Part shown: positions 12,035 to 60,691 of the stretch, piece after piece
Position numbering within the stretch: the first letter of the stretch is position 1
Layout of the letters: each line of letters begins with the position of its first letter
Notes under the pieces: model-generated
What the model was told of the DNA's origin: nothing
Database searches by the model: none
The model's input: the letters and a program-made list of their open reading frames with translations, nothing else
Source: Promethearchaeota archaeon
GTDB taxonomy: Archaea > Asgardarchaeota > Lokiarchaeia > Sigyniarchaeales > SOKP01
NCBI GenBank assembly: GCA_011364925.1
Contig: RDOA01000002.1
Location: 32,001 to 96,000, forward strand
Reading direction: 5' to 3'
Length of the DNA: 64,000 nt
Translations under genes and position numbers: made by a program

Positions 12035-12103
12035 GGAAAAGAATAAAGGTTCGTTGCTTTTTAACGCTTAAATTTGAATAAAAAGCTTAAATTTGTAATT
12101 GCC

Positions 12104-34898: not shown

Positions 34899-34914
34899 AT
34901 CCGATTATGTGTCT

Positions 34915-35793: not shown

Positions 35794-35818
35794 CTTTTTT
35801 TCCCTCCTAAAAACGTTC

Positions 35819-38916: not shown

Positions 38917-39111
38917 TTATAGTCTATCTATAAAATTATTCACTTCCTCCATCCGTTTCTCGTAGTATTCTTTTAACTCTTTCTCAGAAACAAACGTAGG
39001 AATTACTTTTTCTAAATAAATATCAAAAATCGTTGATAACTTGGTTTTATGTTGAATTGACTCAAGAAATTCCTCTCCTAAGTGCTTTAGTTGATTAAAA
39101 AAGTCTGACAT
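38917..39111 (-). CDS. Small hypothetical protein (64 aa)
   Basis: Tightly packed between activase and PlsC-like genes; amphipathic helical pattern. Confidence 0.65.
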   Translation of the reverse strand: MSDFFNQLKHLGEEFLESIQHKTKLSTIFDIYLEKVIPTFVSEKELKEYYEKRMEEVNNFIDRL

Positions 39112-39132: not shown

Positions 39133-40158
39133 TTAAGTTAATTGATCCCATTTTCCGCATCGAGAGCCCCAACGGGCTATAATTTTATTACCAAATTCTG
39201 GCATTTTTACTTGAACAATCTCACAATTATTCGGACAGTCGCCACAATTGAAAGCAGAGGTAGTAAATTCAATCTCTGCTACTTCAAGACCTCTAAACAC
39301 TGTCTCGTGTTCGCGTTCTAAATAATAGTCTCTAACTAAAATAGCCATACCAAGTGCTCCCATAAGAACGTTATATTTAGGGACTATAACTTTACACCCT
39401 AAGTGCCTCTCAAAAGCTTCTATAATTCCCTTATTGTAGGACACCCCTCCTTGAAAGACGATTGGTTCTTCGAGGTCTTTACCTTTACCAACGTTGTTCA
39501 TATAATTGCGAACGAGAGAATCGCACAGTCCAGCAATTATATCCGCTTTAGAATACCCCGCGTTTTGCTTGTGAATCATATCTGATTCAGCAAATACAGT
39601 ACACCTACCAGCTATACTTACCGGGTTCTTTGATTTTATAGCATAATCTCCAAACTCTTCAATAGGAATCCCAAGCCTCGCCGCTTGGTGGTCAAGGAAC
39701 GAACCTGTTCCAGCAGCGCAAACAGAGTTCATTGCGAAATCTATAATTATGCCATCTCTCAAGAGTATAATTTTAGAATCCTGACCTCCGATCTCTAATA
39801 TGGTTCTTACATCGGGATACATTGTTTGAGCGGCAACAGCGTGAGCAATTATCTCGGTTTTTGCGAGATCTGCTCCTACAATGGCTTTAGTTAAATATCT
39901 TGCTGAACCAGTCGTCCCACAGCAACGAATAGCATATTCGGGTAAATTCTCACTCTCTTCTATTTTATCGCGTAATTGTGCCATTCCTGCTTTTGCTGAA
40001 TCGATAGGAGAACCTCTATTCCGCAAAAATACACTGGTTAGTATATTTCCGTCAGTATCCATAAGAACGAATTTACAACTTACGCTACCTATGTCGATTC
40101 CAAGGAACGCATCCTTCTTATCTTCTTCTTTCATTACTTTTTCAGATACATCTTCCAT
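39133..40158 (-). CDS. BcrAD/BadFG/HgdC-type ATP-dependent activator (ASKHA ATPase, 4Fe-4S), set A
   Basis: GIDIGSVSCK, TTGSAR, EIGGQDSK, NSVCAAGTGSFLD, AGRCTVFAESD; C-terminal CGDCPNNC...RC. Confidence 0.93.
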   Translation of the reverse strand: MEDVSEKVMKEEDKKDAFLGIDIGSVSCKFVLMDTDGNILTSVFLRNRGSPIDSAKAGMAQLRDKIEESENLPEYAIRCCGTTGSARYLTKAIVGADLAKTEIIAHAVAAQTMYPDVRTILEIGGQDSKIILLRDGIIIDFAMNSVCAAGTGSFLDHQAARLGIPIEEFGDYAIKSKNPVSIAGRCTVFAESDMIHKQNAGYSKADIIAGLCDSLVRNYMNNVGKGKDLEEPIVFQGGVSYNKGIIEAFERHLGCKVIVPKYNVLMGALGMAILVRDYYLEREHETVFRGLEVAEIEFTTSAFNCGDCPNNCEIVQVKMPEFGNKIIARWGSRCGKWDQLT

Positions 40159-40293
40159 TTTTACTCACCATTAAACCGAATTTTGTATTAATTGATTCGT
40201 TACGAATTCTGTATTATTTTTAATTTCTTTATTTTTACGAGCGGGCAAATTATACAATGTTTTGTTATTTGAGAAAGAAAATAAGACGAATAA

Positions 40294-40359
40294 TTTTACT
40301 TAATTAACTATTTAATCAAAAAAAAAACAGTTTAAAATAAAAATTTACCCATTATAAAC
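40294..40359 (-). promoter_or_regulatory. Shared cluster promoter, copy 1 (box B 40294-40320; core 40333-40359)
   Basis: + strand TAAAATAAAAATTTACCCATTATAAAC, one mismatch to the copies at 45656 and 50697. Confidence 0.7.
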
Positions 40360-40601
40360 CGATTATTAAAAGTATTACTATAATTATACACATTTTTGAT
40401 CCTCATTTTGTTCGAATCTTGATTAGTCTTCATTTTCGATAAATTTCCTTGTCCGTAGTTACTACTTCAATGTAAGTCATATACTTATTTTATCGAAGTC
40501 ATTTAAATAGTATAATCTTATTCATCTTCCTTATAAAATTTTACACATATTTTTAAAACTTAATTTTCTGATTAGTATTTAAAATTAAATAAGATGAATT
40601 T

Positions 40602-41225
40602 ATGATGGAAAAAATAATTAATCTTGATTTAAAAGCAAAAGAGAATATAATTATCGCTAGTAAAGAAGAACTAGTTGCCTTAGAATTAAATAAGTTAGCT
40701 AAAAACCTCTTGAAAAGAGTGAAAACAAGAAAGAATTTTGCGGAAAAAGAGATAAAATTAGCTGAAATTAGAAAAAGTATGGTTGAAAATAACTACAAAT
40801 TATTAGAAAACAAAATTAATTCAAGGGAGATACTAGACTTTTCGGAGGATGTAATAAAAAAAGAACGGGAATTTATAGATTATCACGAGAAAATCGCTGA
40901 AAATCAACTAAATTTAGCAAAACTACATAAAGAAATAGCAGAACTTGAAGAAAAATTAGCGAAAAGTAAGATAATTTTAGCAAATTCTAAACTAAATGTC
41001 GCTAAAACTCGTCTTAAGATAGGTAAGTTGCAACAAAAGTTTGTAAATGTTGTTCAAAAGAAAACACCTGAAAAAGCTAAGATAATAAAACATCTATATA
41101 AGGAAGAAGAAGAAAAATTAAATCATCAACTCAAAGATGTAATCGAAAAAGAAAATCAAGTTAAAATGTTTCAAAATGATATCGCAAAGATAACAAATAA
41201 ACTCTCCCAGACTCTGACAAATTAA
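40602..41225 (+). CDS. Coiled-coil hypothetical protein
   Basis: K/E/L-rich heptad pattern throughout. Confidence 0.7.
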   Translation: MMEKIINLDLKAKENIIIASKEELVALELNKLAKNLLKRVKTRKNFAEKEIKLAEIRKSMVENNYKLLENKINSREILDFSEDVIKKEREFIDYHEKIAENQLNLAKLHKEIAELEEKLAKSKIILANSKLNVAKTRLKIGKLQQKFVNVVQKKTPEKAKIIKHLYKEEEEKLNHQLKDVIEKENQVKMFQNDIAKITNKLSQTLTN

Positions 41226-41261
41226 ATAAACTCAATTTTTAGTTAATTATTTTGAAATGAC

Positions 41262-41738
41262 CTATTCTCTAATTATTAAAACATCACAAGGAACATGTCT
41301 TAAAACTTTCTCTGCTACATTTCCAAGTAAGATTTCTTCAAGAAGAGAATGAAGACCTTTACTTCCAATTATAACAAGATCAACTTGCTCTTTTTTAACC
41401 ATTTCTTTAATATAAGATACAGGACCATATTCAAAAATTAATCGAGTTTCCACTTCTGATCCTGCTTCCATAAAAAGATTCTTAGCTCTATCTAAAATTG
41501 CTTGGCCATTTTTTTCATATACTTCTCTTATCCGTTGAATATCAGGATCTGAAATACTATAGACGTAAGGAATATTATAAGATGGTCCCATAAACATCCC
41601 TCCAGGTTCTGCATGATACTCTACTGAATGAAACACGATCACCTTACTTTTAGCTGATTTTTGAAGTTCGATTGCTTTTAATATAGCCTTGTAAGAAGAT
41701 TCTGATCCATCAATGCCAATTAATATTTTCTTATAAAT
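41262..41738 (-). CDS. Universal stress protein (UspA family); start extended beyond the ORF track
   Basis: In-frame upstream extension reads (I/M)YKKILIGIDGSESSYKA; GSKG...LLGNVAEKVLRHVPCDVL; the only plausible start is ATT at 41738 behind AGGTGA. Confidence 0.85.
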   Translation of the reverse strand: MYKKILIGIDGSESSYKAILKAIELQKSAKSKVIVFHSVEYHAEPGGMFMGPSYNIPYVYSISDPDIQRIREVYEKNGQAILDRAKNLFMEAGSEVETRLIFEYGPVSYIKEMVKKEQVDLVIIGSKGLHSLLEEILLGNVAEKVLRHVPCDVLIIRE

Positions 41739-41904
41739 AATTCATCACCTTATTGAATATTTATTAATTAAAACAAAATTAGCTATTAAAATATTCTGGC
41801 TATAATTTTTAGAGAAAAAGATTAAGTAAAAAATCAATAATCAATAGTTAGATATTTCAGAATAGACCGAGTATTATGACGAATTATTATTTTAATAAAG
41901 GTGT

Positions 41905-42234
41905 ATGAAAATTACTGAGAATATTTATAGGTTGACATGGAGAAATAAATGGATTACTGCTCATGCTACTTCGATTGATGACTTTATCGAAACATTTGAG
42001 AATTTGGCAAAAGAATTTAGAAGGTGGAAGGAATTAGGAATAAAGTTATATACAGATAGAGGTATAGGGGATGATTATGCTTCATTTATCACTGATGATA
42101 TGGATATTGCCATTAAAGCAGGATTCACATTCTATATGGGCGATGATAGAAAAAGAGAGTATCTTGAGCTGCTATCTGGGGGAGAAATTGAAGTTCCAAA
42201 AGAGAAACTCGAAAAATTAAGAAAAAAGGATTAA
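41905..42234 (+). CDS. Hypothetical protein
   Basis: 109-aa ORF with AAGGTG upstream; protein-like composition. Confidence 0.65.
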   Translation: MKITENIYRLTWRNKWITAHATSIDDFIETFENLAKEFRRWKELGIKLYTDRGIGDDYASFITDDMDIAIKAGFTFYMGDDRKREYLELLSGGEIEVPKEKLEKLRKKD

Positions 42235-42395
42235 TACTTTGAAATTTTAAAATTTTTCCCGAAGTAATAAATTTATAGTCTTCCAATCTTAGAATAGGTT
42301 AGATTAAAACCCAACAGCTACAAAAAAATCAGTGGACCTGACTATTCGAAATTTCTTCATAAAAGTCCCTAATTAGAAAAAATTAGAAATGAGCA

Positions 42396-43430
42396 TTAAT
42401 AGTAATCAAGATTATTAGATTTCGTATCGCAAAACTCCTTAAGCTTCAGGACTTCCCATTTATACTCTTCAAGTTTAATAATATATACCCCTTCAACGCT
42501 ATCCTCAATAGGATATCCCCTTCCTTGAGTCCATCTAATATTCGAAATACGTATTTCGTCTCCCACATGAATTAAATCCCAGAATAGTCCCGCACAGCAT
42601 CCCAGATGCCCACAACCTCTAACTACTATACAATCATCCTCCCAATCGTCATTGTCGCTCTCTGAGAGAATATTTTCTGTTATACCTTTTACAAGCGCGT
42701 TTATATGTATAACAGGAAAGGGTTCATAAATGAGACAATACTCGCCTAGATAAATTTCAATGTACCCTGAAAACGCACTCGCCGAGATTGCTTTGATATT
42801 TTTGATAAAAATTCTAAAAGTTTTGTCCGTATTCTCATAAATAGGTTTTCTTTCTAGTAATTTCCTCTCATGCCCCTCTACAGTCCAATCCACGAGTCCG
42901 AGTGATAGGAACATTTTGAATCGCTTTGGAAAGGCTTCAAATGGGATTTTTGGTTCCAGATGGAAAGGTGATAATAAAATAACTCCATCATCAGTATCAA
43001 AGGCAGGACCACCATCTGGGTATAGAACTAATTTTCTCCTTTTCCATTTAGGATCACGGAAATATTTTGGAATAAATGTTCCTTCTATTATAAGTGCTGA
43101 AGGTCCCAATTTTTTCAAAGGAGTCGTCCTAAGATTGTTTTTTTTTACTTTTTCCTCCCTTTTCCGTTCCAATTCTTCAACCACATCGAATTGATAGTAT
43201 TCTCCCTCCAGTTCAAAGGGCGAGTTGTTTTCGGGCATCAATCTATATTCTGATATCGGAGAGCGAAAACCAGAGAGTAGAACATCAATTTCTTTTCCTA
43301 CAAAATCCTTCATATCTCCATCTTTATATAATTCTGATTCTAATGTAATAACTTGTCCACTAGTCAATCGAATTGTTATTAGTATTACTTCATTTTCAAT
43401 CTCTTTGGTATTCTCAAGGAGGACTTTCAT
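42396..43430 (-). CDS. Hypothetical protein (C-terminal CGHLGCC)
   Basis: 344-aa ORF; no family recognised. Confidence 0.65.
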   Translation of the reverse strand: MKVLLENTKEIENEVILITIRLTSGQVITLESELYKDGDMKDFVGKEIDVLLSGFRSPISEYRLMPENNSPFELEGEYYQFDVVEELERKREEKVKKNNLRTTPLKKLGPSALIIEGTFIPKYFRDPKWKRRKLVLYPDGGPAFDTDDGVILLSPFHLEPKIPFEAFPKRFKMFLSLGLVDWTVEGHERKLLERKPIYENTDKTFRIFIKNIKAISASAFSGYIEIYLGEYCLIYEPFPVIHINALVKGITENILSESDNDDWEDDCIVVRGCGHLGCCAGLFWDLIHVGDEIRISNIRWTQGRGYPIEDSVEGVYIIKLEEYKWEVLKLKEFCDTKSNNLDYY

Positions 43431-43529
43431 TAATTAACCACTTTTACATCATATTTTCCATAAATTTCAATTTTTTAATAGGAAAGGTATTTTTATAAAT
43501 GAAAATAATATTTTAGATAATAATTAGAA

Positions 43530-44417
43530 ATGTTCAAAATAAATAAGTTCATCACGCTTGAACTTCGAAACGGAAAGACAGTTATTTTTTTGGATAACTC
43601 TGAATTTGCAATTTGTATGGGTGCAAGCATTAATACTATTTTAAGGGACCTAGCATACGGTTCCGTTGATAAAACAATTGAAGATTTGGATATGAGATCT
43701 TTTGTTTCGTTAAGTCCAGAAGAAGAGTATTGGGTGCACTGCTCTAATTTACAAGCGTGGAGCGAAAATAATTACGACACGAGATTAATTCATCCAGATC
43801 TTTCTTTCCCTTTATTGAGAGAGTTAGTACAACTAGGCGACCCCAAAGCGTTAGAAGTGTTTAAGGATGAACTCGTTAAAAAATTTAAAAGCAATCACAT
43901 GCCGACAGTTATATTTTTACTTCAGGGTGGCTATTTAGATGAATTTACTGACGAAGAATTTGAAGTTTTGATGACTGAAGTAAAGGAAAAGATTTATACC
44001 TACGAGATTGACACTCAAGATAAAATTGTTTTGGATATGGTGTTCGAAGGCGAAGATTATGATGAGGTTCCACCGCTCGAGCGCTTCAAACCGAGGGCGA
44101 TACAATTTTTAATGGAACACCCAATAATAAACTTATTCGAATTGTTAGTTAAGTTTGGATGTTATTACCTTAAAGCCTATTACCCGTGGATTTTTAAGTT
44201 CTTTGGTTGCCTTAAAAAGAAGGAGCCTGAGCTGTTTAAGAAAAAAGTGGAATTGCTTTTGAAAAAGGGTTATAAACTTATTCCAGCAACAGTGGAATAC
44301 TCCGAGAATATTGGAGATTACACATTTCATGACAAACGGTCCGATTATTCGGAGATGGACGAGTTTGCACAAGTGTTTTACTATAGATATCTAAGAGATT
44401 ATAATTTCAAAAGTTAA
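43530..44417 (+). CDS. Lokiarchaeal-type conserved domain protein (domain commonly found N-terminal to LRRs)
   Basis: FKINKFITLEL...SPEEEYWVHCSNLQAWSENNYDTRLIH..LSFPLL..L...GDP.A..VFK.E. Confidence 0.7.
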   Translation: MFKINKFITLELRNGKTVIFLDNSEFAICMGASINTILRDLAYGSVDKTIEDLDMRSFVSLSPEEEYWVHCSNLQAWSENNYDTRLIHPDLSFPLLRELVQLGDPKALEVFKDELVKKFKSNHMPTVIFLLQGGYLDEFTDEEFEVLMTEVKEKIYTYEIDTQDKIVLDMVFEGEDYDEVPPLERFKPRAIQFLMEHPIINLFELLVKFGCYYLKAYYPWIFKFFGCLKKKEPELFKKKVELLLKKGYKLIPATVEYSENIGDYTFHDKRSDYSEMDEFAQVFYYRYLRDYNFKS

Positions 44418-44419
44418 AA

Positions 44420-45604
44420 TTATTCGGTAATAATCTTAACGCACTCGTTATAGAAAGAGTCGCCGTAGTAAGGATAAATTTTCCGATTCCCATTTGCTTG
44501 GAATTCTTTGTTTTTTTCTATTTCCTTTTTCCTCCTACCATGCATAAGGTCTGCGAACGCCTCTAATCGCGTGCGGAAACCTTCCATACCTGATTGTTCA
44601 TCGAAGGAGAAATAAATTATTGGGAGATCGTAGATTTTCTTGAGTTTATTGGTTATAATCGTGCGAGCTACGACCTCAGGCATACATAAAAAGGGATACT
44701 CATGGACGAAACCATCAAATCCAGCCAGCGCCTTGTCGATATACTCCCCAAGCACCCACCTCGCCTCTCCACCGCAGTCTAACGGTAAATATGGACGCGA
44801 AAGATGCTCCAACCATTTTCTGTGATAATTTAGATGAAATTTGTGGACAACCCAATCATACAAGCTTAGAGATTGGTGAATTTCGATTCCCATCTCACCT
44901 AGCTTTCTTCTAATGTCAAGGTTAACGTAAGGTTCCAAGCTTATATGAATCTCGCCCGATATCCCTACTTTTAACGGAGTTCGAGTTTTATCGATATCCA
45001 GACCATTAAAATCTTGTTTAATAACATTTTTAAATTTCCTTAACTCGGGGAGCGTATTAGCCTCGTCGAGCTTTGTTAGCAGACCATTTACAATGTCTGT
45101 AGTGTCTCCTTGATTTCGCTCGTACGCTCGGAATAGCCCCTCTGCCGTCTGGATGTCGTTGAGTAATTTAGCCTTCTTTAGGAAAAATATGATGGCTTTC
45201 ACAAACTTCGAATAAACGAACAAATCACTCCGACCACTTATTTCTTGAAGCGTTTTAACCCAATGAAACTCAAGTAAATCGGCCTGATCCAAGGGGACTA
45301 CCGTAATATTCTTGTATCCCATATCCTTTAGAATTCTCTCCTGCACAGAAGCATAAAATCCGAACCTACAAGGTCCACAGTCGATCGCCATGACTAATGT
45401 ATCTGCTCCCTTCTCGATGGCATTGACAAAATCCCCTATTGTCGCCTTGAATGGAAAACAAACGAACTCTGGAGATTGCTTAACGCCGATTTTGATTGCC
45501 TCACGATTTGTTGGATCAGGAACGACCACATCTAAATCAAGGCTTGTAAAAAGTGTTTTAAAGGCAACCCAGTTTGGGCCCATATTAGGGAAGGAGATTA
45601 ACAT
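44420..45604 (-). CDS. PlsR-like/HgdAB-like reductase subunit 2, set A
   Basis: SPEFVCFPFK, CGPCRFGFY, GEIH, PFLCMPE, SFDEQSG..GFRTRLEAF. Confidence 0.85.
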   Translation of the reverse strand: MLISFPNMGPNWVAFKTLFTSLDLDVVVPDPTNREAIKIGVKQSPEFVCFPFKATIGDFVNAIEKGADTLVMAIDCGPCRFGFYASVQERILKDMGYKNITVVPLDQADLLEFHWVKTLQEISGRSDLFVYSKFVKAIIFFLKKAKLLNDIQTAEGLFRAYERNQGDTTDIVNGLLTKLDEANTLPELRKFKNVIKQDFNGLDIDKTRTPLKVGISGEIHISLEPYVNLDIRRKLGEMGIEIHQSLSLYDWVVHKFHLNYHRKWLEHLSRPYLPLDCGGEARWVLGEYIDKALAGFDGFVHEYPFLCMPEVVARTIITNKLKKIYDLPIIYFSFDEQSGMEGFRTRLEAFADLMHGRRKKEIEKNKEFQANGNRKIYPYYGDSFYNECVKIITE

Positions 45605-45619
45605 CTTAAATCTAAGAAA

Positions 45620-45685
45620 TTTTACCTAAGTCAAGTATTTGATCAAAACATGGTTTAAAATAAAAATTTACCCCTTATAAACAAA
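45620..45685 (-). promoter_or_regulatory. Shared cluster promoter, copy 2 (box B 45620-45647; core 45656-45685)
   Basis: Minus strand GTTTATAAGGGGTAAATTTTTATTTTA with TATA-like TTTATAA; identical to 50697-50726. Confidence 0.75.
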
Positions 45686-45779
45686 ATATTAATCATGTGT
45701 TATTTTTAATAAAAAATGGGAGCAATAATAATAAGATAGGATGCAAAAATTAATATTCCAGATAGTTCCAAAACTCGAA

Positions 45780-47105
45780 TCAAGATACCAGATTTTTCCA
45801 TATCGAATTTCTTGAAAAGAACTCAAGTCCGTTCTTAACGGCGAATCCTACATCTAATTTCTTTGATGGATTCAGCATAGTTAAAACCTTTGACATTGGT
45901 GTTTCAATACTAGAAACAAAATAATCAAAATTAGATTTCGGCTTAAAATATATACTTTTTATTTCATCCGGGATCACATACTTGACATCTTTAAACAAGG
46001 GATTAGCATTCTTGTTGCCGACCATTAAATCATGAAATGCTTCGATTCTTGTTCTAAGTCCTTCAAAACCAGAACTTCCATCAAGACTAATATGAATTTG
46101 GGGCATGTAAAACTTGTCCATGTTTTTCTCAGCCTCTAGCATTCCCATGAGGGATATTTCAGGCATGCAAGTGAAGGGAAAAATGTGGACATAGCCGTCG
46201 AACCCTTTTTCTTGACACTCAAGATAACTCCCCATGTTCCAGATCATCTCCCCACCAACATCCATTGGGACATAATTTTTTGCCCTTTTTTCAAGTCGTC
46301 TTCTTCGTTGGCTGGCGTCAAGTTTGTACATAACCCAATCAAAGACATCATACTGCTTGTGAACCTCGATACCCATGACGCCTAATTCTCCCATCAGATC
46401 ATAATTAACCCATTTCTCCAACATGACTTGGATTTCCCCAGTATAACAAACCCTCAAAGGTTCCATTTCCTTGTCAATAGGAATCTTGCGAAAGTGTTCA
46501 TCTATCGTTCTATCAAAATTAGATAATTTCATCAAATTGTATTCGTTATCAAGTAAATTCATCAAAGTATGAACTACTTTGGTAGTCATTGCTTTGGTTT
46601 TTTCCCGACATCTAACAAGTCCTTCAATATGGCTGATTCTTTCAACATAGTATGCTTTGATTAAGAACAAGAGTGTGTTTCTTAAAATTTTATAGTCATC
46701 AATTTTTCTTCCTGTTCTTTTTTCTAAATCATGAAACATCCTTAGCCATTCAAGATTTCGGAAATCATCTTGATTCAGATAAAACATTCTAACATCATTG
46801 AATCCCATGTTTTTCAAGATCCTTTTCTGGACAACAGCATAAATTCCTGCTCGACAAGGACCGTGATCAACAATCATCGCAAAATCTTTGACGTCATAAT
46901 TACGATACAGGTTTATCATTTCACCAAGAATGACTTTAAATGGAAAACAAACGAATTCAGGAGAAACTTTGACTCCTTCACTAACGATGTCAGTGTTTAC
47001 TAAAGGTGGTTCAACAACTTCAATACCAGGAAGATCATAGAATAAACCTTTGAAAAAAATATAGCTCCAACCCATTCGTGAAAATGCAATTCTGACATTT
47101 ACCAT
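45780..47105 (-). CDS. PlsR-like/HgdAB-like reductase subunit 2, set B
   Basis: SPEFVCFPFK, HGPCRAGIY, GEIQ, PFTCMPE, GLRTRIEAF; overlaps the end of the activase gene. Confidence 0.85.
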   Translation of the reverse strand: MVNVRIAFSRMGWSYIFFKGLFYDLPGIEVVEPPLVNTDIVSEGVKVSPEFVCFPFKVILGEMINLYRNYDVKDFAMIVDHGPCRAGIYAVVQKRILKNMGFNDVRMFYLNQDDFRNLEWLRMFHDLEKRTGRKIDDYKILRNTLLFLIKAYYVERISHIEGLVRCREKTKAMTTKVVHTLMNLLDNEYNLMKLSNFDRTIDEHFRKIPIDKEMEPLRVCYTGEIQVMLEKWVNYDLMGELGVMGIEVHKQYDVFDWVMYKLDASQRRRRLEKRAKNYVPMDVGGEMIWNMGSYLECQEKGFDGYVHIFPFTCMPEISLMGMLEAEKNMDKFYMPQIHISLDGSSGFEGLRTRIEAFHDLMVGNKNANPLFKDVKYVIPDEIKSIYFKPKSNFDYFVSSIETPMSKVLTMLNPSKKLDVGFAVKNGLEFFSRNSIWKNLVS

Positions 47106-48130: not shown

Positions 48131-50640
48131 TTGTATTTCTTCCTCCTTATCATTTCTATAAAAGATTCTATTCTTGTGGTTATTTGGGATTCTCCAGTGT
48201 GTTCATCTAATGTAAGATCAATAAAAGGTTTATTTTTCATGTCAAAATCCTGCATTACCAATTCTTGAATTAAAGAATCAGGACCACATGCAAAAGAAAT
48301 TAAGAAAATGCCTCCATCAATCTCTTCATTATGGATAACATAATCAGATAATTGCATCAATTCATCTTCATTATCCCAGAAATTGGTTAGATTATCATCA
48401 ATTTCAACTCTTCTTGAGAAGATTTCCTTTGGAGCATTTTCAACAGTTACAACATCAACAAAATTGGCTTTGAGTATATCCATTAATCCATGATTAATAA
48501 TTGGTTCATAAGTGTTGTATGGATGACCAAGAACCATTAATGTAAGTGGATAATTTTCATAATCTTTGTTAAGTTTAGGTCGAAATCTTTTCTTAAACTT
48601 ATAATTAGGATATTTATCAAAAGGATACATTTTGTAAAGTGCATCAATGACAAGAATTCCATCCTCAGTCAACTTATGGAATTCTTCAAGTTTTTTATAT
48701 CCGTTCTCATACGCAAGTTTTGATTCTTCTTTAGATTTGCCTAATGTTTTTCCAAAATCTATTGCTGATTTCATCATTGTATGTTCCCTGGCATTAAAAG
48801 TCCATTCAATAACGGGAACATTAGAAACTGTCGAGTGCTGAGTGACATCTGGAAGGAGCAGGAATTTTGGACAATAATAATGATCCTTACTTTTACTAAC
48901 GAGTCTTGGAACAAATATAAAATCTAGATCGGGGTGATTCGTCGATAAATAATTCACATGACCGTAATGAATCTTGACTGGAATGCATAAATCGGTTGCA
49001 GACTGATTAGATCCGTTGGTAAGAATTTCTTTGTTCGTTTCTGGACTCACAATAACTTCGCAACCAAGACTTGTAAGCATTCCTTCCCATAATGGAAAAT
49101 ACTTGTAGAAATACAGGGAACGTGGTATACCTACCTTCAGGCTTTTCGTCTTTTCAGGTTTTTCAGTCTTTTCAGTTTTTTCGTTCTTTTTCTTATAATT
49201 CGTCTTTTCGTACAGGTTTCGAAATAGGTTCTTAGGATCCGTTCGTTCTTTCACATTATCGTATAATTCCTTGTTATATATCTTCCAGAACAAGTCTTCC
49301 TCGTAGAAATTGTGAGTTATTAGAGTTTTCATTCCCCCGAGCTCATAAACCTTTTCTTCAAGCGCTTTATAGAAGTTAAATCCCTTTCTTTTTTGCTCGA
49401 ACCCGTAGATGGCAAAATCTATGAATAATTCATCCTCGATGGGAGCGAACATGTCTTGATTAAGCCACGGGTAGAACTTGTACCCATCCAGCTTGTCTTT
49501 TTGCATGCGGTAAGGGACGATCCAAACCGGGAAGTAATTATCAAATACATCCAGGTACCAATTAAAAAATTCTTCCGCGTGAGTGAATGGTATGAAGACA
49601 TCAACAATTACGTCCGGTTCTCCACCCTTCTTAGTTAAAAATGGCAATCGTTCGCTGATGTTAAGAATATTTGTTGATCCAAGTATATAGGGTCCTACTA
49701 ACCACCGGACTACTTTATTCTCAAAAATTCCTCCAGCAACATTCCGTATCGACCAGTGACAATCTGCATCATACCTGAAAAAATAATCTATGGTGGAGAG
49801 GAAATCTCGCTTTTTTTCCATCGCACTTTTGTAATAAATATCGTAAAAATATTGACTCTTGTAAGGAGCTTCCTCCTCATCAACGAAGCTGGCAACACAG
49901 AGTACGTTCATATTCTTGGAGAAGATAAGCCCGTCCATCATTTCAATATCCTGCTTTTCGTAGTGTTGCATGATAGCTTCCATGTATTCACTAAAAGTAT
50001 TGTAACGGATGTAATCGATGCGAACGCACTTTTTTGCTGGAACGAGCTTAAACTTTAGGAGTGTGATGATTGCAATCGTGCCAAAACTCCCATGCAGCAT
50101 CTCGAATATATCATGGTTATCGCTTTTCGTGCATAACATTATGTCGCCTGTTCCTGTCACGATTTCTATTTCTTCACAGGAATCGAAAAATCCCCCATAC
50201 TTGAAAGACATGGATTCAACAGAACATCCTGCTACTGCCCCGCCTATCGTGATTCCCTTGAGCTCGGAAACCGTTTGCGGTACAAGACCATACTTTAAGG
50301 TTTCTGTTGCAAGTTTAACAAAAGTAACCCCTCCTTCTGCAATACATGTCCTAGTATCCGTGTTTATCTCAATAATGTCAGTAAGTGACTTTACATCAAT
50401 CGGCTTGTCACTATAGATTGGGTTATCTGGTTGTGGAGCCATGTGGGAAACATTCGCCTTTTTTAGAGAAAAATATTCTCCTGGCTTCGCGTTGTCGTAC
50501 GCGTTTCTAACCATTTCAGAGATCGCTTCTACTTTTCTTTTATGTATTGCTAGTTTTTCTTCGCTCATGTCATACACAGGCTTGGGATTATTGCACGAAA
50601 CGATCCTTGCTTTGGGAAGGAAATTAACATTATTTTTCAA
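48127..50640 (-). CDS. Fusion: DHCR24/Rv3719-like FAD oxidoreductase + DUF2229 reductase domain 1, set B
   Basis: ELKGITIGGAVAGCSVESMSFKYG, HGSFGT, YFFRYD, TDP.NLF.NLYEK; linker; then VGIPRSL, CIPVKIHYGH, CPKF, GHPYN, SFACGPDS, LDEHTGE..TRIESF. Confidence 0.85.
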   Translation of the reverse strand: MKNNVNFLPKARIVSCNNPKPVYDMSEEKLAIHKRKVEAISEMVRNAYDNAKPGEYFSLKKANVSHMAPQPDNPIYSDKPIDVKSLTDIIEINTDTRTCIAEGGVTFVKLATETLKYGLVPQTVSELKGITIGGAVAGCSVESMSFKYGGFFDSCEEIEIVTGTGDIMLCTKSDNHDIFEMLHGSFGTIAIITLLKFKLVPAKKCVRIDYIRYNTFSEYMEAIMQHYEKQDIEMMDGLIFSKNMNVLCVASFVDEEEAPYKSQYFYDIYYKSAMEKKRDFLSTIDYFFRYDADCHWSIRNVAGGIFENKVVRWLVGPYILGSTNILNISERLPFLTKKGGEPDVIVDVFIPFTHAEEFFNWYLDVFDNYFPVWIVPYRMQKDKLDGYKFYPWLNQDMFAPIEDELFIDFAIYGFEQKRKGFNFYKALEEKVYELGGMKTLITHNFYEEDLFWKIYNKELYDNVKERTDPKNLFRNLYEKTNYKKKNEKTEKTEKPEKTKSLKVGIPRSLYFYKYFPLWEGMLTSLGCEVIVSPETNKEILTNGSNQSATDLCIPVKIHYGHVNYLSTNHPDLDFIFVPRLVSKSKDHYYCPKFLLLPDVTQHSTVSNVPVIEWTFNAREHTMMKSAIDFGKTLGKSKEESKLAYENGYKKLEEFHKLTEDGILVIDALYKMYPFDKYPNYKFKKRFRPKLNKDYENYPLTLMVLGHPYNTYEPIINHGLMDILKANFVDVVTVENAPKEIFSRRVEIDDNLTNFWDNEDELMQLSDYVIHNEEIDGGIFLISFACGPDSLIQELVMQDFDMKNKPFIDLTLDEHTGESQITTRIESFIEMIRRKKYK
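49147..49182 (-). repeat. 9-bp tandem repeat x4 encoding the EKT/EKP interdomain linker
   Basis: GAAAAAACT GAAAAGACT GAAAAACCT GAAAAGACG at the junction of the two domains. Confidence 0.8.
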
Positions 50641-50645
50641 AGAAG

Positions 50646-50726
50646 TTTTACTTAGGCAAGTATTTGATCAAATCTATGAAATCAAATAACTCACTCTAAA
50701 ATAAAAATTTACCCCTTATAAACAAA
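50646..50726 (-). promoter_or_regulatory. Shared cluster promoter, copy 3 (box B 50646-50672; core 50697-50726)
   Basis: 30 bp identical to 45656-45685; CAAGTATTTGATCAAA identical to 45632-45647. Confidence 0.75.
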
Positions 50727-50973
50727 TTGTCAATTGTATGATACTTTTAATAAAAATTTCAATAATATATATTAATTTTCACAGATCGATTGACACTATT
50801 ATATTTGTATCTCCCGTCATATTGAGTTCTTCTAACATATATATAGCTCCTCGCTTCAGTCAAAAACTTTATTCCTTTCAGTATCGCTAAACGATACTAT
50901 ATACTAATAAACAACAGATCAGAAAGACTAAAATTAGAAAAGATTACAATTTCAATGCGAACATGGGATTATA

Positions 50974-52383
50974 TTACAACAAGTTATCTGACTTCTTCAT
51001 TAGTTCATTCTTCTTTTTACGCAGTCTTTTAGCCTGGACTGCGATAGTTTCAAGAAGTCTTATTTGGTTAGAGGCTAACCATGGGCCTTCACAATCCACG
51101 GCAGCGTATGGAACATCACTCTTATTGGCCAAAGGTCTTATGATTGCTTGAGAATTCATAGCAGGTTGGCAATTAAATGTTCCAAGGTTTATTAAGCCAT
51201 CGTAAATGTTTTCCTTAAGAGAATACAAAAACCTACCAACAATTTGTGGTGTTTCAGTCATACTGTTTGAGGATACATATTTATTACCTTCTTCTAGGAG
51301 TTTATCAATTTCGATATAGGAATCGAACAATAATCCTGATCTACTCATTATTCTTCTGTACATCTTACATTGAGTATCAATAAAATTTATCATACTCTTG
51401 GTTCTTTTCGCTCTTACTGCCTCTTTTTGTTCTTTTTCGTTTAATTCAGAAAAATTAATTAAGGCCTCATCGAACTGATCTTTTGGGGTGAGAAGTCCTT
51501 TACTAAACCCAAACCTTATTGTATTTTCGGACAAAAGTAAAGTCATCCCTTCTGAAACATCAGCAACCTTTGTTATAATTCCTTTCTGAAGGAAAAATTC
51601 TTCAATTGGATAATGATCAAACATTAAGTTCAATCCCCCAAAGATTAAAATTTTAGTAGTCTCTTCGACTTTAGCTTTTAAAGGGATTTTCGCAACTTCT
51701 TTTGCCCACCTTACTAAACCAGTTTTTATGGTTTTTTCCCCCATTCTCACGCTTTCAATGAAGTTGGTTGTAATTTCTTCGAAAGTGTTCAAAGCAGAGT
51801 ATTCATCCTCAGCCGTACATCGTAGGGCGTTCCGCGCTTCAATTATATACTGTCCGATTATAAAATTGAGCTTTTCTTGCGCAATAAAGTCTTTATTCAA
51901 TCCTAGATAATTATTATAATAATTAGGTATCTGGTAGAATAACACATTTTTCAGATTCAGTCGTTTTGAAAAGTTTTTCCATATAACTGGCCATGCACCA
52001 TTCTGACACGGGCCATCTTGATCTATGGGAGTAATATAAATAGTGATCTCGTTTTCAGATCTATTCTCATGAATATCTTTCAATATCTCACCAGCAATAG
52101 CAACACACGCAAGACATTCTCTTCCAGAACAGATCTTCTTACCGTATTGTAGAGTGGAGGTGTTAGTTTCTTTGCTGATACGGACATTCTTATTGTGTGA
52201 AGCGTACAAATCTTTAACAAGACGTATCCCATAAGAATTTCTTGGTTCTGGCAAAACATAGACAATTCTTGGATCACTAAAGTCAACGCTATTTCCATCG
52301 CTGTCTATAATAGAACCATTATGAACTTCAGCCGATTTTACTTTTTGAATATCTTCGATTTTAAATTTCTTTATATCAGACAT
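50974..52383 (-). CDS. PlsR-like reductase subunit 2, set C
   Basis: SGRECLAC, DGPCQNGAW, ET...VG, FNCQPA, AAVDCEG; 17 bp downstream of the PlsA-like gene. Confidence 0.8.
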   Translation of the reverse strand: MSDIKKFKIEDIQKVKSAEVHNGSIIDSDGNSVDFSDPRIVYVLPEPRNSYGIRLVKDLYASHNKNVRISKETNTSTLQYGKKICSGRECLACVAIAGEILKDIHENRSENEITIYITPIDQDGPCQNGAWPVIWKNFSKRLNLKNVLFYQIPNYYNNYLGLNKDFIAQEKLNFIIGQYIIEARNALRCTAEDEYSALNTFEEITTNFIESVRMGEKTIKTGLVRWAKEVAKIPLKAKVEETTKILIFGGLNLMFDHYPIEEFFLQKGIITKVADVSEGMTLLLSENTIRFGFSKGLLTPKDQFDEALINFSELNEKEQKEAVRAKRTKSMINFIDTQCKMYRRIMSRSGLLFDSYIEIDKLLEEGNKYVSSNSMTETPQIVGRFLYSLKENIYDGLINLGTFNCQPAMNSQAIIRPLANKSDVPYAAVDCEGPWLASNQIRLLETIAVQAKRLRKKKNELMKKSDNLL

Positions 52384-52400
52384 TTTTCTATTAAAATTCT

Positions 52401-55334
52401 CTAGCTTGTTAATTCAAATTTTTTACGTCGTTCTTCAATTATATCAAGAAATGCTTCTACCCGTGTTTCAAAACCAGCATGTGCAGTATGTGAATCAATC
52501 TCAAGATAACAAAATGTAGATCCTGCAAGCTCCTGTCGAAATTGATGATACATTGTACCGTCAGGACCACAAGAAAAACAGGAAACCATACAAATATAGA
52601 CATTTGGATTTTTTTTTGCGAAATTTACTGCATTATCGATCTGTTGAGTAAAAAGCCATGCATTTCGTTCATGATTAGCCGTTAGTAGTGGTAAAATATC
52701 AACTGGAATAGCATGATATCCTCTACTTGCAATTTTCTGAGGAAGTGCAATATTAATATCATTAGGATAGATTACATAAGGTCTTCCAGCAATTATTACA
52801 CTTGGTTCCTTGATTAATTTATCTAGTAGTTTTTCTCCTAACTCATGATACTTCCGAATAAACTTTTTATAATGAGAAAAAGCCCGTTTACCTGCTTCTA
52901 TTCCTACACTCCTTTCTAATCCGAGTTGAATCGCAACTTGCCCCAATTCTTGTAATGTTGTTTGTAAATATCGTTTCGATGTGCTTATATGAGGTGCTAA
53001 AATTCTATCTTGCTCGTTCTCAAACGCAGCTCGAACAACATCAGATATAACAGCTGTTGAGCTGCAGGTATACCCGTGAAGATATCCATCTGTAGGTTCG
53101 AATTCAAAAGTTCGAGGTAAAAATATATATTCGATTCCTTGGTTGATAAGATCTAGTACTGCTCCATGCGTTAATTCACCAGGATAACATATCGATGCCA
53201 ATGTTTTAGTATTTCCTAATGTATTTGATTTTGATAACACTACATCGAATCCCAATTCATTAATAAATTTGGTATAAAAGGGAAAAAGTGAATGTGTAGT
53301 TAAAACCATTGGTAAACCAATAGATCCTAGTGAATTTTTAAGAGCAGTTGGTCCAAATTCATCGTAAATCATTGAGTTCCTTATCTCTACTAGATTTTTA
53401 CCTAGTTTTATCTTTTTGCCTCTCTGACGCAATAGCTTGTATTTTGAACATAATCCACCAAACGGATAGGTATTGCCTCTTATGGAAATGTTTTGGATCT
53501 CGCAATTGTTTTCACATGCATTACACCTAAATGTGCTCTTTACTTTCATCTCTCCATGTAGAAGATCCCTTAAATTAAAATTATGTTCAGAGATTTCTTC
53601 GTTTCTTAAAAGATCGAGAGCCATTAGAGCAGAACCTATACTTCCCATAAGCTCGGGATGGGCTGGAACAATAATTTTTCGTTGAACTCGATCAGCAATG
53701 GCTAATGCAACAGCTTTATTTAAAGCAAGGCCTCCCAGAAATAAGATATTTTCACCAATTTGGCGGGATCCAATGATCCTCGAAATATAATTATCAGCAA
53801 TTGAATAAACAAGACCTGCAACAACATCCTCTCGTTTAGCGCCTTGCTGTAGTGCGTTTCTTAAATCAGTATTAATAAAAGCTGCACATCTTTCCCCAAA
53901 TGAAATTGGCTGAGAGCTGGTTAGAGCAATTTCACTGATTTTTTCGACTGGAATCCCCATATCTACTGACGCAGATTCTTCTAAAAAACTCCCAGTTCCG
54001 GCAGAACACCCTTCATTCATAGCATAATCAATAGGAACACCTTTTAAAAAGGAAATAAATTTTGAATCTTGCCCACCAATTTCAAAGACAGTATCGATTC
54101 CAAGTAATTCTTCCGTAGCGGATCGTGCGTGAGCTAATATTTCGTTAAAACTTCGACAATTATCCAAATACACTGAAACCATTTCTCTCGCTGACCCTGT
54201 TACACCGCATTGAATTATATTAATCGTAGTATTGCCAATTTGTTCTAAAAGTATCTCTAGACACTGTTTTGTTGATACAATGGGATTCCCTAAAGTTCTT
54301 AAATACGCACTAGCTCCAATGGAACTATCTTTTACATTGAATAGAACTGCTTTTGTAGTAGTTGATCCGGCGTCTAAACCTAATATATAGGATCCATTTT
54401 TAACAATTCTCATTTTAGTAGCTGGTTCTACTCGATAATCTAATAAATTTTCAATACTGGTAAGGGTTTTAGTAGTTTCAAAGACCGACTCCTTTTGTTC
54501 AATCAAATTTTCACTCCTTTGAGTATCATTTTGAATCTCAGACGCATATAGAGCCGCTCCAAAGACTTCAAGAAATGGGCTTTCTGATAAAACTTCAATA
54601 TCAGAGGATGGAAGAAAGTTTTGCATACTTTCGATAAAATACTTATTTAAAGAAACCCCACCCGTGATAACTATTAAATCAGTTGGCCATTGAGCACTCT
54701 CAATCATTTCACTCACTTTTCTTGCTAAATCGTGTATTAATGTTTTTGCGATGTCTTCTTTTTTACATTCTCCTTTGTTAAGTTTATGCGTCGCGTCAGA
54801 TTTACAATGCACCGAACATCGAGTTGCTAATTGAACTAACTGCCCCTTTGAACTTTCCTCAATTCCCTGCTTTACAGAGAGACCCATCCTTTCAAGTTGC
54901 TGGACGATAAATTCTCCTGTTCCAGCGGCACATTTAGAGGTTGAAATAATATTCTTAATAACGCCATTTTTCATTGGGTATATACTAAATGTTTCGCCTC
55001 CTAAAGAAAGAAGTAAATCGGGTTTTAAATTATAATATTGCAGTGCTTTTTCAAAGCATTCTACTTCAGAATAATAGGGAAAATCGAAAAATTGTTTTGC
55101 AACATTTCCTGTCATAACGATATTTGAATCACCATTGGTATTATGACGTTTAAAAATCTCTCTAATTTTTTCTCTAGGGAAACCCTCATGACGCAAAACT
55201 TCATTTATTATCGTTCCGTCTTGGGAAATTCGAACCCATTTTACAGAAACCGCCCCTATCTCTAATCCCTCATAATACTTATACTTGTACGAGACTTCTT
55301 TTGTGAAACTTTCGTTTGACATTAGGATCATCAA
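52401..55334 (-). CDS. PlsA/Ger-like protein: activator 1 - activator 2 - DUF2229 reductase 1, set C
   Basis: Act1 KCAAGTGEF/RCSVHC; Act2 GLDAGSTTTK, EIGGQDSK, NEGCSAGTGSFLEE, RCAAF; CNACENNC; Red1 CYPGE.THG, GRPY, CFSCGPD, EIDSHTAHAGFETRVEAF. Confidence 0.88.
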   Translation of the reverse strand: MMILMSNESFTKEVSYKYKYYEGLEIGAVSVKWVRISQDGTIINEVLRHEGFPREKIREIFKRHNTNGDSNIVMTGNVAKQFFDFPYYSEVECFEKALQYYNLKPDLLLSLGGETFSIYPMKNGVIKNIISTSKCAAGTGEFIVQQLERMGLSVKQGIEESSKGQLVQLATRCSVHCKSDATHKLNKGECKKEDIAKTLIHDLARKVSEMIESAQWPTDLIVITGGVSLNKYFIESMQNFLPSSDIEVLSESPFLEVFGAALYASEIQNDTQRSENLIEQKESVFETTKTLTSIENLLDYRVEPATKMRIVKNGSYILGLDAGSTTTKAVLFNVKDSSIGASAYLRTLGNPIVSTKQCLEILLEQIGNTTINIIQCGVTGSAREMVSVYLDNCRSFNEILAHARSATEELLGIDTVFEIGGQDSKFISFLKGVPIDYAMNEGCSAGTGSFLEESASVDMGIPVEKISEIALTSSQPISFGERCAAFINTDLRNALQQGAKREDVVAGLVYSIADNYISRIIGSRQIGENILFLGGLALNKAVALAIADRVQRKIIVPAHPELMGSIGSALMALDLLRNEEISEHNFNLRDLLHGEMKVKSTFRCNACENNCEIQNISIRGNTYPFGGLCSKYKLLRQRGKKIKLGKNLVEIRNSMIYDEFGPTALKNSLGSIGLPMVLTTHSLFPFYTKFINELGFDVVLSKSNTLGNTKTLASICYPGELTHGAVLDLINQGIEYIFLPRTFEFEPTDGYLHGYTCSSTAVISDVVRAAFENEQDRILAPHISTSKRYLQTTLQELGQVAIQLGLERSVGIEAGKRAFSHYKKFIRKYHELGEKLLDKLIKEPSVIIAGRPYVIYPNDINIALPQKIASRGYHAIPVDILPLLTANHERNAWLFTQQIDNAVNFAKKNPNVYICMVSCFSCGPDGTMYHQFRQELAGSTFCYLEIDSHTAHAGFETRVEAFLDIIEERRKKFELTS

Positions 55335-55479
55335 ATATTATTGGATAATTGTTTAAAATCTTCTCAAAGGGAGTACCGAATTTAATTTAATTCCAAATTT
55401 AGAATATCTATTCAATAATTCCTTAGTTTATCTAAATTGCTTAAAATTATGATATAATGGTTAAGCACATATGGTTATA

Positions 55480-55526
55480 TTTTACTTAGATACTTATTTA
55501 ATCAAAATTGAAGTGTTGTATATAAA
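55480..55526 (-). promoter_or_regulatory. Promoter of the PlsA-like gene with box B copy 4 (55480-55506) and TATA-like TTTATATA (55519-55526)
   Basis: TTTTACTTAGATACTTATTTAATCAAA matches box B of the other three units. Confidence 0.55.
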
Positions 55527-55715
55527 TGTTTTCCTACACTTGCAACGGGTAGAATCTCTTAATTTTTGCCGAATCCTTGTTCACTGAATGAACATTCATT
55601 TATTTTGCATTGTTCTTTGCAATTTATCGAAAAATAGTATAATACGATAAATCCTAGACAAAGTTGAAATTTAAGACTTATCAAAAAAAAGAGGTACAAA
55701 ATACAAGTTTGGAAC

Positions 55716-56792
55716 CTATACTTCTTGTTTTGAGCGAATAATTAAATGTTGCTTTTGGTTTAAGTCCTTTCTTCTTTTCTTTCTTCTAATCATTTCAACA
55801 AAACTTTCTACTCTTGTCAATAATCCAGCTTCTCCCGAATGTTCATCCATCGTAATCTCCAAGAAAGGAAGTCCAACAACTTTCATATCGCGCATGATTA
55901 ATTCTGAAATTAGACTATCTGGACCACAAGCAAAACTTATTAAGAAAATAACTCCATCAATTTCGTCTCGACCTTCAGTGAGGAAATATCGGATGCTTTG
56001 CATGATTTCTTCTTCATGGCGCCAGTAATTTCGAAGTTTCCCACCTTTTGGGTTGACGATAACAGGTTTCTTAAAAATGAATTCTGGTAAGTTTTCGATA
56101 GTGATAACTTCTACTCCTTGATCTTGTAACTTTTTCTGAAAATCAAGGTTGATGAAAGTATCGAATATGTTGTAAGCATGTCCTAATAGTAAAAACTTTA
56201 TATCACCAGTGAGTTTTCTCTTAGGTAAGGTAAAAGAGCGATTCCTTTCAGCTAACCGTAGTGCATAATTGACCGAAGCGCCGTTTCTCAAAAATTCGTG
56301 ATACTCGTCAAAATACCTTTGGGCTTCTCTATACGCGTTTAAAGATTGATTTTGAGTTTTTCCTAACTGACTACCGAGTTCAATTGCGGCTGCTGATATA
56401 GGAAACTCTTTAACATTTACCTCAAAGTTCAAAATTTTTGGAACTCCCGGTAAAATTTTAATTACATCGGGTAATGATAAGAATTTTGGGCAAAAATACG
56501 AATCTTTTGTTTCAGAAACATATCTCGGTACAAAAATATAGTCTAAATCAGGGTGTTCTTCTATTAGTTTGATAACTTGTCCGTAGTAAATCTTAACGGG
56601 AATGCATAACTCTCCAAATCCATGAGTTACGCCTTCCTCAACTATTTTTTTGTTTGTAAGGGGACTTATAACGATTTCGGCATCTAGCTCTTCTAAGATC
56701 TTTTTCCAAAACGGAAAATACCTGTAAAAATGAAGCGCTCTCGGTATCCCCACTTTGAATTTTTTCTTAGTGGACGGTTGTGGAACTTCCAT
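55716..56792 (-). CDS. Stand-alone DUF2229 reductase domain 1, set A
   Basis: VGIPRAL, CIPVKIYYG, CPKFLSLPD, GHAYN, SFACGPDS, MDEHSGEAGLLTRVESF. Confidence 0.88.
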   Translation of the reverse strand: MEVPQPSTKKKFKVGIPRALHFYRYFPFWKKILEELDAEIVISPLTNKKIVEEGVTHGFGELCIPVKIYYGQVIKLIEEHPDLDYIFVPRYVSETKDSYFCPKFLSLPDVIKILPGVPKILNFEVNVKEFPISAAAIELGSQLGKTQNQSLNAYREAQRYFDEYHEFLRNGASVNYALRLAERNRSFTLPKRKLTGDIKFLLLGHAYNIFDTFINLDFQKKLQDQGVEVITIENLPEFIFKKPVIVNPKGGKLRNYWRHEEEIMQSIRYFLTEGRDEIDGVIFLISFACGPDSLISELIMRDMKVVGLPFLEITMDEHSGEAGLLTRVESFVEMIRRKKRRKDLNQKQHLIIRSKQEV

Positions 56793-60587: not shown

Positions 60588-60691
60588 CTTAGCATTTTAT
60601 TATCTATAAAGCTTTTATACCTTCTATTAATTATTAAAAAGTAATCATACACGAATTCTATTTTTAGTATGTAATTCCGTTATTCATACAT

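Follow-up and report, generated by a model that had tools for sequence, protein, structure and literature searches.

The bacterial enzymes PlsA/PlsR and Ger reduce esters to vinyl or alkyl ethers (PMC8788747, PMC13159169), and the report of assayed Ger activity also lists Ger homologues in Lokiarchaeota (PMC13159169), from which PlsC and PlsY have been described as well (PMC6737245). A 64,000-nt stretch of the genome of a Promethearchaeota archaeon (the window, in which all coordinates below are given) lies on a contig of 193 kb in a 3.9-Mb assembly of 112 contigs and contains three sets of genes for an activase and two reductase subunits of this general type, designated A, B and C, interleaved with genes for PlsC-type acyltransferases. 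The locus is probably a lipid gene cluster of the Lokiarchaeia (Promethearchaeota) type, in which two sets were inserted into an operon containing the third and the encoded enzymes would turn ester lipids into ether lipids. The evolutionary part of this reading, namely the ancestral operon and the histories of sets B and C, can be held with high confidence. Literature searches found no paper on a PlsC-linked three-gene set, on the fusion of a flavin adenine dinucleotide (FAD) domain to a reductase subunit, or on the nest; the anatomy of the triple nest, the differing histories of B and C, the promoter copies and the family-wide insertion hot spot described below are new.

From 37.9 to 59.3 kb, every relevant gene is on the minus strand. 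In the direction of transcription the order is a HAD-family phosphatase gene, PlsC2, the catalytic subunit Red1 of set A (A_Red1), the fused Act-Act-Red1 gene of set C (Act being the activase), C_Red2, the FAD-Red1 fusion of set B, B_Act, B_Red2, A_Red2, five unrelated genes on both strands, A_Act, orf64, PlsCs and orf84. A prior reading of this DNA from its letters alone (the sequence-only reading) had recognized three complete activator/reductase sets here, and they are indeed complete: all eight reductase and activase open reading frames (ORFs), each on the minus strand, are intact, and every Fe-S cysteine is kept. They are:

55716-56792, minus strand: set A Red1, catalytic subunit (Pfam DUF2229 and HGD-D)
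44420-45604, minus strand: set A Red2 (weak DUF2229/HGD-D hits; 78-90% identical to Red2 of compact operons)
39133-40158, minus strand: set A activase, A_Act (one BcrAD_BadFG domain, 1.5e-47)
48127-50568, minus strand: set B FAD(DHCR24-like)-Red1 fusion (FAD_binding_4, DUF2229 and HGD-D; the ORF extends to 50640)
47099-48130, minus strand: set B activase, B_Act (one BcrAD_BadFG domain, 5.5e-47; two cluster cysteines and a C-terminal Cys motif)
45780-47105, minus strand: set B Red2 (weak DUF2229/HGD-D hits; 39% identical to A_Red2)
52401-55334, minus strand: set C Act1-Act2-Red1, a PlsA-type polypeptide (two BcrAD_BadFG domains and DUF2229)
50974-52383, minus strand: set C Red2, a PlsR-type subunit (full-length alignment to residues 988-1430 of a fused homologue)

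The genes of set B overlap, as had been noticed, by 4 and 7 nt. The conserved start of B FAD-Red1 is the ATG at 50568 (MSEEKLAI) and not the TTG at 50640; the 72 nt between the two cross what is left, in another frame, of the 5' end of Red2A. By BLASTP, sets A and B are 54% identical in Act, 43% in Red1 and 39% in Red2, and C is 24-36% identical to A, which agrees with the earlier impression that C is the more divergent set; three motifs quoted as common to A and B occur exactly in the proteins of both. The domain content given in the sequence-only reading is borne out by Pfam and NCBIfam. C_Red2 has no Pfam hit; over its full length it can be aligned (E 1e-25) with the last 440 residues of a 1448-aa sister-family homologue in which the parts are fused.

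The cofactor residues C63/C101/C289 of Red1, C49/C79/C307 of Red2 and C147/C186 of every Act domain are invariant in all three sets and in bacterial homologues, and the stand-alone activases of A and B end, like the second Act domain in the fused proteins, in a Cys-rich tail. BcrAD_BadFG scores in the three sets range from 1e-47 to 1e-52, and A_Act matches HadI and HgdC among PDB sequences at 1e-38 to 1e-35. Red1 gave marginal matches only in a PDB sequence search; the AlphaFold (AF2) model of A_Red1, the one protein whose fold was modelled (predicted local distance difference test, pLDDT, 86.6), has as its best folds HadB/C, the double-cubane protein DCCP, BzdNO and MbdON, with E values of 1e-10 to 1e-7 and a template modelling (TM) score of about 0.5. 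Sets A, B and C belong to the benzoyl-CoA reductase/2-hydroxyacyl-CoA dehydratase (BCR/HAD) radical enzyme family, with an ASKHA-fold activase and the HgdA/B-type catalytic fold with Cys ligands, and by domain architecture the nearest characterised relatives of the enzyme are bacterial PlsA/PlsR and Ger. The genome has five hits to DUF2229 and three PlsC-type domains (PF01553), all of them inside this cluster, the latter in PlsC2 and PlsCs; PlsY and geranylgeranylglyceryl phosphate (GGGP) synthase are also encoded in the genome.

The cluster was compared with its best homologues and with 79 related loci, all from metagenome-assembled genomes (MAGs) named Promethearchaeota or Promethearchaeia (Lokiarchaeia-type Asgard archaea), and trees were built by quick IQ-TREE searches. 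The genes that surround the three sets and that belong to the conserved unit are:

58507-59289, minus strand: HAD-IA family phosphatase, first gene of the ancestral unit (Pfam HAD_2, 2.7e-23)
56814-58493, minus strand: PlsC2, tandem PlsC-type acyltransferase (two Acyltransferase domains)
38917-39111, minus strand: orf64, conserved small gene between Act and PlsCs (64 aa)
38197-38904, minus strand: PlsCs, PlsC-fold protein (Pfam Acyltransferase, weak at 4.8e-7)
37926-38180, minus strand: orf84, last gene of the conserved unit, following PlsCs

The sequence-only reading had derived the locus from an ancestral order HAD-PlsC2-Red1-Red2-Act-orf-PlsC*-orf, for which a compact set A was to be sought in other Lokiarchaeia, and this order was recovered in many relatives. 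HAD-PlsC2-Red1-Red2-Act-PlsCs-orf84 is contiguous in genomes G007 and G016 (same genus), the compact order is visible from PlsC2 to PlsCs on a short contig of G034, and G026, from another family, has the compact order with orf84 not detected; the sister family f2 has PlsC-Red1-Red2-Act. Red1-Red2-Act is contiguous in 14 of the 79 loci, with PlsCs next where the contig continues, and orf64 lies between Act and PlsCs in 30 loci. Red2 and Act are separated by 20-76 nt in the compact relatives. The trees of A_Red1, A_Red2 and A_Act are congruent, each recovering the same relatives, so that neither of the grounds for refutation named in the sequence-only reading applies, and the link of the reductase sets to PlsC holds across at least three families. 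Compact relatives uphold the proposal that B, C and the unrelated genes, here five orphans, were inserted into the operon. A few labels among the compared sequences are likely to be wrong: locus L084 (DATKTW010000084.1), which has this Asgard operon, is titled Candidatus Nanopelagicaceae bacterium, and G034 and G075, genomes placed in other families, carry short contigs with genus-type A genes at 79-88% identity; mislabelling or mis-binning is the likely cause in each case.

The flanking genes are conserved to different degrees. Between the HAD gene and PlsC2, which follows it, there are 13-17 nt in this genome as in many relatives, and the HAD product scores under every NCBIfam equivalog cut-off. 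Both domains of PlsC2 have intact HX4D and xPEGT catalytic motifs (HESHLD/FPEGTRS and HNSEWD/YPEGTTN). Neither HX4D nor PEGT is present in PlsCs, which is kept after Act in relatives, and orf84 follows it by 16-47 nt in relatives, at 47-71% identity. At the same position in the 30 related loci, another family included, orf64 is 51-94% identical; it has no family match and is probably a small subunit or partner of the system. Searches of Pfam and NCBIfam at loose thresholds gave no match for orf64, orf84, orf109, orf207, orf295, orf344 or C_Red2.

The idea of one ancestral operon holds for gene order and probably fails for a single transcript, since Red2-Act has its own conserved promoter-like box. 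The gap between Red1 and Red2 among the related loci is usually 42-834 nt, and in the genus two boxes, A and B, are conserved within it; the ancestral unit was therefore probably never one transcript. Copies of the boxes recur through the cluster:

45636-45682, minus strand: promoter-like region native to Red2A, with box A at 45656-45682 and box B at 45636-45647, kept before A_Red2 in relatives of the genus
50614-50723, minus strand: duplicate of the Red2A promoter region before B (box A 50697-50723, box B 50661-50672, Red2A codons 50614-50630), recognized by similarity to the region upstream of A_Red2
40309-40359, minus strand: third copy, upstream of ActA (box A 40333-40359, box B 40309-40320), recognized by box matches
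55495-55506, minus strand: box B (TTTGATTAAATA) upstream of set C, an exact copy

The native region holds a TATA-like TTTATAA about 70 nt before the ATG of A_Red2. The duplicate before B is 87% identical to the 60 nt upstream of A_Red2, and its ATGTTAATTTCCTTCCC matches 16 of the 17 bases with which Red2A begins, in a frame other than that of B. In a search that tolerated up to four mismatches, box A (27 nt) has three sites in the 3.9-Mb genome, before A_Red2, B and A_Act; box B (12 nt) has ten exact copies, four of them upstream of units of this cluster. In other genomes, extra copies of box A likewise stand beside inserted blocks. Judged from these matches, the displaced pieces of set A kept or gained the putative Red2A promoter, and the upstream boxes shared by four units suggest co-regulation.

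Sets B and C came to their places by different routes. Set B is part of a block with fixed ends across genomes:

45804-50604, minus strand: cassette B (three genes and ~40 nt upstream), a block of ~4.8 kb

In BLASTN comparisons with other genomes this block is 87-97% identical over ~4.8 kb with the same ends, as against 64-81% for the flanks (73-81% for the adjoining Red2A). It was found in at least four genera at the DNA level, with protein-level hits in five. Among six species of the genus, B has synonymous divergence (dS) of 0.05-0.32 and third-position identity of 0.82-0.97, whereas the A genes of the same genome pairs range from dS 0.4 to saturation, with third-position identity mostly 0.43-0.68; across genera, dS is 0.09-0.54 for B, and the A genes are saturated at a third-position identity of 0.39-0.48. 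Because B is near-identical while the neighbouring A genes are saturated at silent sites, B is, on this sequence evidence, a cassette that has been spreading recently and laterally between species and genera. Copies of B at other chromosomal sites carry stubs of the 3' end of Red1A and of the 5' end of Red2A, which points to the Red1/Red2 junction as their source and to recombination between flanking homologies as their vehicle. The ratio of nonsynonymous to synonymous substitution (dN/dS) is 0.01-0.08 for the A genes and 0.05 for C, and is higher, at 0.16-0.33, for B. Base composition had been proposed as a further check, and neither B nor C stands out as foreign in GC content, GC at third codon positions (GC3) or codon usage; the sole outlier of the cluster is A_Red2 (GC3 0.437, z +4.4; codon-usage score z -3.3, relative to 1521 long ORFs from the genome), and the insertions can therefore not be dated in this way.

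In the trees of Red1 and Red2, B stands with the PlsC-linked set of the sister family f2 (93 and 99, respectively, in the Shimodaira-Hasegawa-like approximate likelihood ratio test, SH-aLRT), apart from the genus's own A. For Red2, the approximately unbiased (AU) test rejects an A+B clade at p 0.0003, the group having been chosen with the tree already known. The Act tree places B_Act, with weak support, apart from every A-type activase; in each of the three B genes the stem is long (0.9-1.1) and the tips are very short. The description of A and B as close paralogs thus stands as far as their motifs and their 39-54% identity are concerned, but not in descent, B Red1 and Red2 being nearer to the sister family's set than to A. 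The sister family also has, at L033, L034, L035 and L039-L040, a second and more distant Red1-Red2-Act set, whose Red1 and Red2 are 32-35% identical to those of A; its Red2 groups with bacterial (Moorella-type) Red1-Red2 fusions (SH-aLRT 99), whereas the Red1 tree does not resolve its order relative to those fusions.

A search of 5.8 billion proteins finds the complete FAD-Red1 fusion in no more than three protein clusters, which are near-identical. The FAD domain (FAD_binding_4, Pfam 1.4e-13) shares 55% identity, across 54% of the query, with an Anaeramoeba protein that bears the name DHCR24, and its nearest solved structures are cytokinin oxidases. Identity as an alkyl-dihydroxyacetone-phosphate (alkyl-DHAP) synthase, the flavoenzyme of ether lipids, was rejected, the match being marginal (E 1e-3).

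Set C groups in the Red1 and Act trees with fused proteins of ~1420-1450 aa from family f2 and with bacterial homologues. Its tree mirrors the relations of the A genes, this genome (G000) being sister to G008, and its dS to the closest relative is saturated; by these comparisons C is an old set passed on by vertical descent. Red1A is directly followed by C in nine of the eleven genomes examined; in G008 and G017, C lies elsewhere. As the tree of C follows species relations, its silent sites are saturated and its usual place is after Red1A, its nested position is probably old and B a later arrival.

The junction between Red1 and Red2 has been entered repeatedly. B directly follows Red1 in 23 of the 79 loci and C does so in eight; in at least 11, Red1 and Red2 are separated by 1.4-9.9 kb of other DNA, and several have insertions between Red2 and Act. 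B is the sole insert in G011, where it overlaps the end of Red1A. G042 has Red1A-C-7 kb-Red2A, with B elsewhere among housekeeping genes, and G043 has the order of the window, Red1A-C-X-B / B-Red2A-Act, spanning a contig break. From the gene orders compared, the junction is an insertion hot spot throughout the family. On the closed chromosome CP070831.1 (G041, L127), PlsC2-Red1A-C is kept at 11853-19500; no Red2A was found anywhere in that genome and no A-type activase among its PF01869 hits, and its Red1A is intact, with all three cysteines and dN/dS of about 0.05. Either Red2A was lost recently or Red1A works with parts of set C. The other insertion in the window is:

40602-44417, both strands: five-gene block between Red2A and ActA (orf207 plus, Usp minus, orf109 plus, orf344 minus, orf295 plus), absent from compact relatives

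Usp alone in this block has a Pfam family. Distant homologues (31-33%) of orf344 and orf295 (42396-43430 and 43530-44417) adjoin B or C elsewhere (L027, 16824-17270; L032, 12253-12783), and genes of this kind may travel with reductase sets.

Put together, the ancestral form would have been HAD-PlsC2-Red1, then Red2-Act-orf64, then PlsCs-orf84, and three insertions at two junctions would have split it in this genome. Set C would have entered just downstream of Red1A long ago and been inherited vertically since. Set B would derive from a set like that of the sister family, having then gained a DHCR24-like flavoprotein, and would have come to sit at the 5' end of Red2A, next to a second copy of that gene's promoter and opening codons. 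In the proposed pathway, PlsC2 would acylate a glycerol phosphate, the homodimeric, ATP-driven activase would inject low-potential electrons into Red1/Red2, and these subunits, each with three cysteines for a [4Fe-4S] cluster, would reduce the acyl ester to a vinyl or alkyl ether; the fused flavoprotein of B may saturate the vinyl ether. By analogy with the assayed enzymes, ester-to-ether lipid chemistry for these sets has about an even chance of being right. It is rather doubtful that the sets divide among them the labour of turning PlsC-made acyl esters into different non-isoprenoid ether lipids, A and C differing in position or substrate, B adding a vinyl-ether reductase that leads to alkyl ethers, and the modules being traded between Asgard lineages as cassettes.

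Several points tell against the reading of the locus as nested insertions of ester-reducing enzymes. The tie to the assayed PlsA/PlsR and Ger is drawn from domain architecture and from bacterial homologues that are themselves uncharacterised (21-29% identity), and A and B do not have the fused Act-Act-Red1 layout of those enzymes. The sole cited lipid analysis of a Lokiarchaeon saw archaeal lipids only (PMC13400652), a result that may reflect the methods used. It is only by a TATA-like sequence and by its position that box A is taken for a promoter; the genomes compared are MAGs, the trees are quick searches, the stems of B are long and the AU group was chosen post hoc. No integrase, transposase or terminal repeats were found in cassette B, or in its flanks at an unrelated site, to explain its movement.

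That the three sets arose as local tandem duplications of set A within the operon and diverged in place would account for the exact motifs and 39-54% identity shared by the adjacent A and B and for the duplicated promoter sequences. This is very improbable: B Red1 and Red2 group with the sister-family set, B is near-identical across genera while A is saturated, B occupies unrelated chromosomal sites in other genomes, and C belongs to a different, fused-type clade; the descent of B from A by local duplication was rejected on the trees and the AU test. Still less probable is an assembly or binning artefact of the MAG. The assembly is in 112 contigs, the similarity of B between genomes favours chimeric joins and the contigs of many relatives break at B, yet the window lies in a single contig of 193 kb, several independently named MAG series join B to their own divergent A genes, the cassette copies differ by 3-13%, and G043 has the same order.

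The function of the sets leaves more room for disagreement. The enzymes might act on another activated substrate, such as an acyl-CoA or a 2-hydroxyacyl thioester, with the PlsC-like proteins acylating a molecule that is not part of the membrane. Among proteins of solved structure, the closest are the double-cubane protein and dehydratases and reductases of CoA esters; NCBI names the proteins as related to acyl-CoA dehydratase activase, stand-alone Red1/Red2 of the A/B type has no known assayed example, and the finding of archaeal lipids only in the cultured Lokiarchaeon (PMC13400652) would fit. This is nevertheless unlikely, though by no means negligible, given that DUF2229 is common to PlsA and Ger, that the sets are linked to the only PlsC domains of the genome and are so linked in several families, and that the domain fused in B is from a flavoprotein family acting on C=C bonds of lipids. 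The three sets might instead be redundant, B persisting as a self-spreading cassette and C as a left-over, with no division of labour. B is laterally acquired and less constrained in its dN/dS, both B and C are patchy among close relatives, and CP070831.1, with Red1A beside C and without Red2A, hints at interchangeable parts. Set against this are the retention of every cofactor residue in all three sets, the strong purifying selection on A and C, the flavoprotein fusion that B alone possesses together with the long stems in its three genes, as expected after a change of function, and the upstream boxes that suggest co-regulation; redundancy thus has perhaps one chance in four. The reading preferred here remains that of a lipid gene cluster whose ancestral operon was entered by C and later by B.

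Other conserved genes adjoin the cluster. Upstream of HAD, at 60045-62317, are genes for a Ras-family small GTPase (Pfam 4e-48) and a beta-eliminating lyase, whose position is kept in many relatives; just beyond the other end, at 33462-36487, are genes for a corrinoid protein, a homocysteine-methyltransferase-like protein and an MttB-family protein, a block that several relatives have in the same place.

No known organisms are more closely related to the eukaryotic host cell than the Asgard archaea, and the switch from archaeal ether/isoprenoid membranes to fatty-acyl ones is an open problem. In this genome the genes for a three-subunit reductase of PlsA/Ger-like type are joined to those for its only PlsC acyltransferases, at a junction that repeatedly captures further reductase sets, one of which, fused to a lipid-type flavoprotein, is now moving between genera. 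The locus offers three small, defined gene sets for expression and a natural experiment in the modular exchange of lipid-remodelling genes.

PlsA/PlsR of Clostridium perfringens (CPE1194/1195; PMC12838417, PMC8788747) has the same parts as the sets described here, namely Act, Act, Red1 with DUF2229, and Red2, and shares with them the conserved Fe-S cysteines and an anaerobic host. Its split into Act-Act-Red1 and a separate Red2 is matched by set C only, whereas in A and B the activase (present once), Red1 and Red2 are separate proteins, Red1 of B being fused to the FAD domain; unlike PlsA/PlsR, all the sets here are archaeal and lie beside PlsC genes. Ger of Thermotoga maritima (Tmari_0479) and Desulfatibacillum alkenivorans (PMC13159169) is built from the same domain families, and fused forms of ~1400-1500 aa in the sister family are the nearest relatives of set C; this genome has no Ger-type ORF of ~1400 aa with two activase domains followed by DUF2229/HGD-D repeats. 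The fused Ger-like type is probably what was counted as Ger homologues in Lokiarchaeota. The three-gene A/B type is not described in that study (PMC13159169) and would probably fail its 30% coverage filter, because Red1 has only about 25% of the length of Ger.

The 2-hydroxyacyl-CoA dehydratases and class I benzoyl-CoA reductases, with HadI/HadBC, HgdC/HgdAB, BzdNO and MbdONPQ, and the double-cubane protein resemble sets A and B in combining an activator with two catalytic subunits. Their activase is a clear sequence homologue and the Red1 model has the same fold, but Red1 and Red2 here carry DUF2229, the catalytic subunits are only 13-17% identical, and the genomic context is one of acyltransferases rather than of genes for CoA-ester fermentation or aromatic degradation. 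The family of DHCR24 (delta24-sterol reductase) and the actinobacterial TmsA/BfaA (10-methylene-acyl reductase) reduces C=C bonds in lipid tails. With FAD_binding_4 and the noted identity to a named DHCR24, the N-terminal 460 aa of B FAD-Red1 resemble these VAO/PCMH flavoproteins of the DHCR24 type; the version in B differs from them in being fused to an Fe-S reductase subunit.

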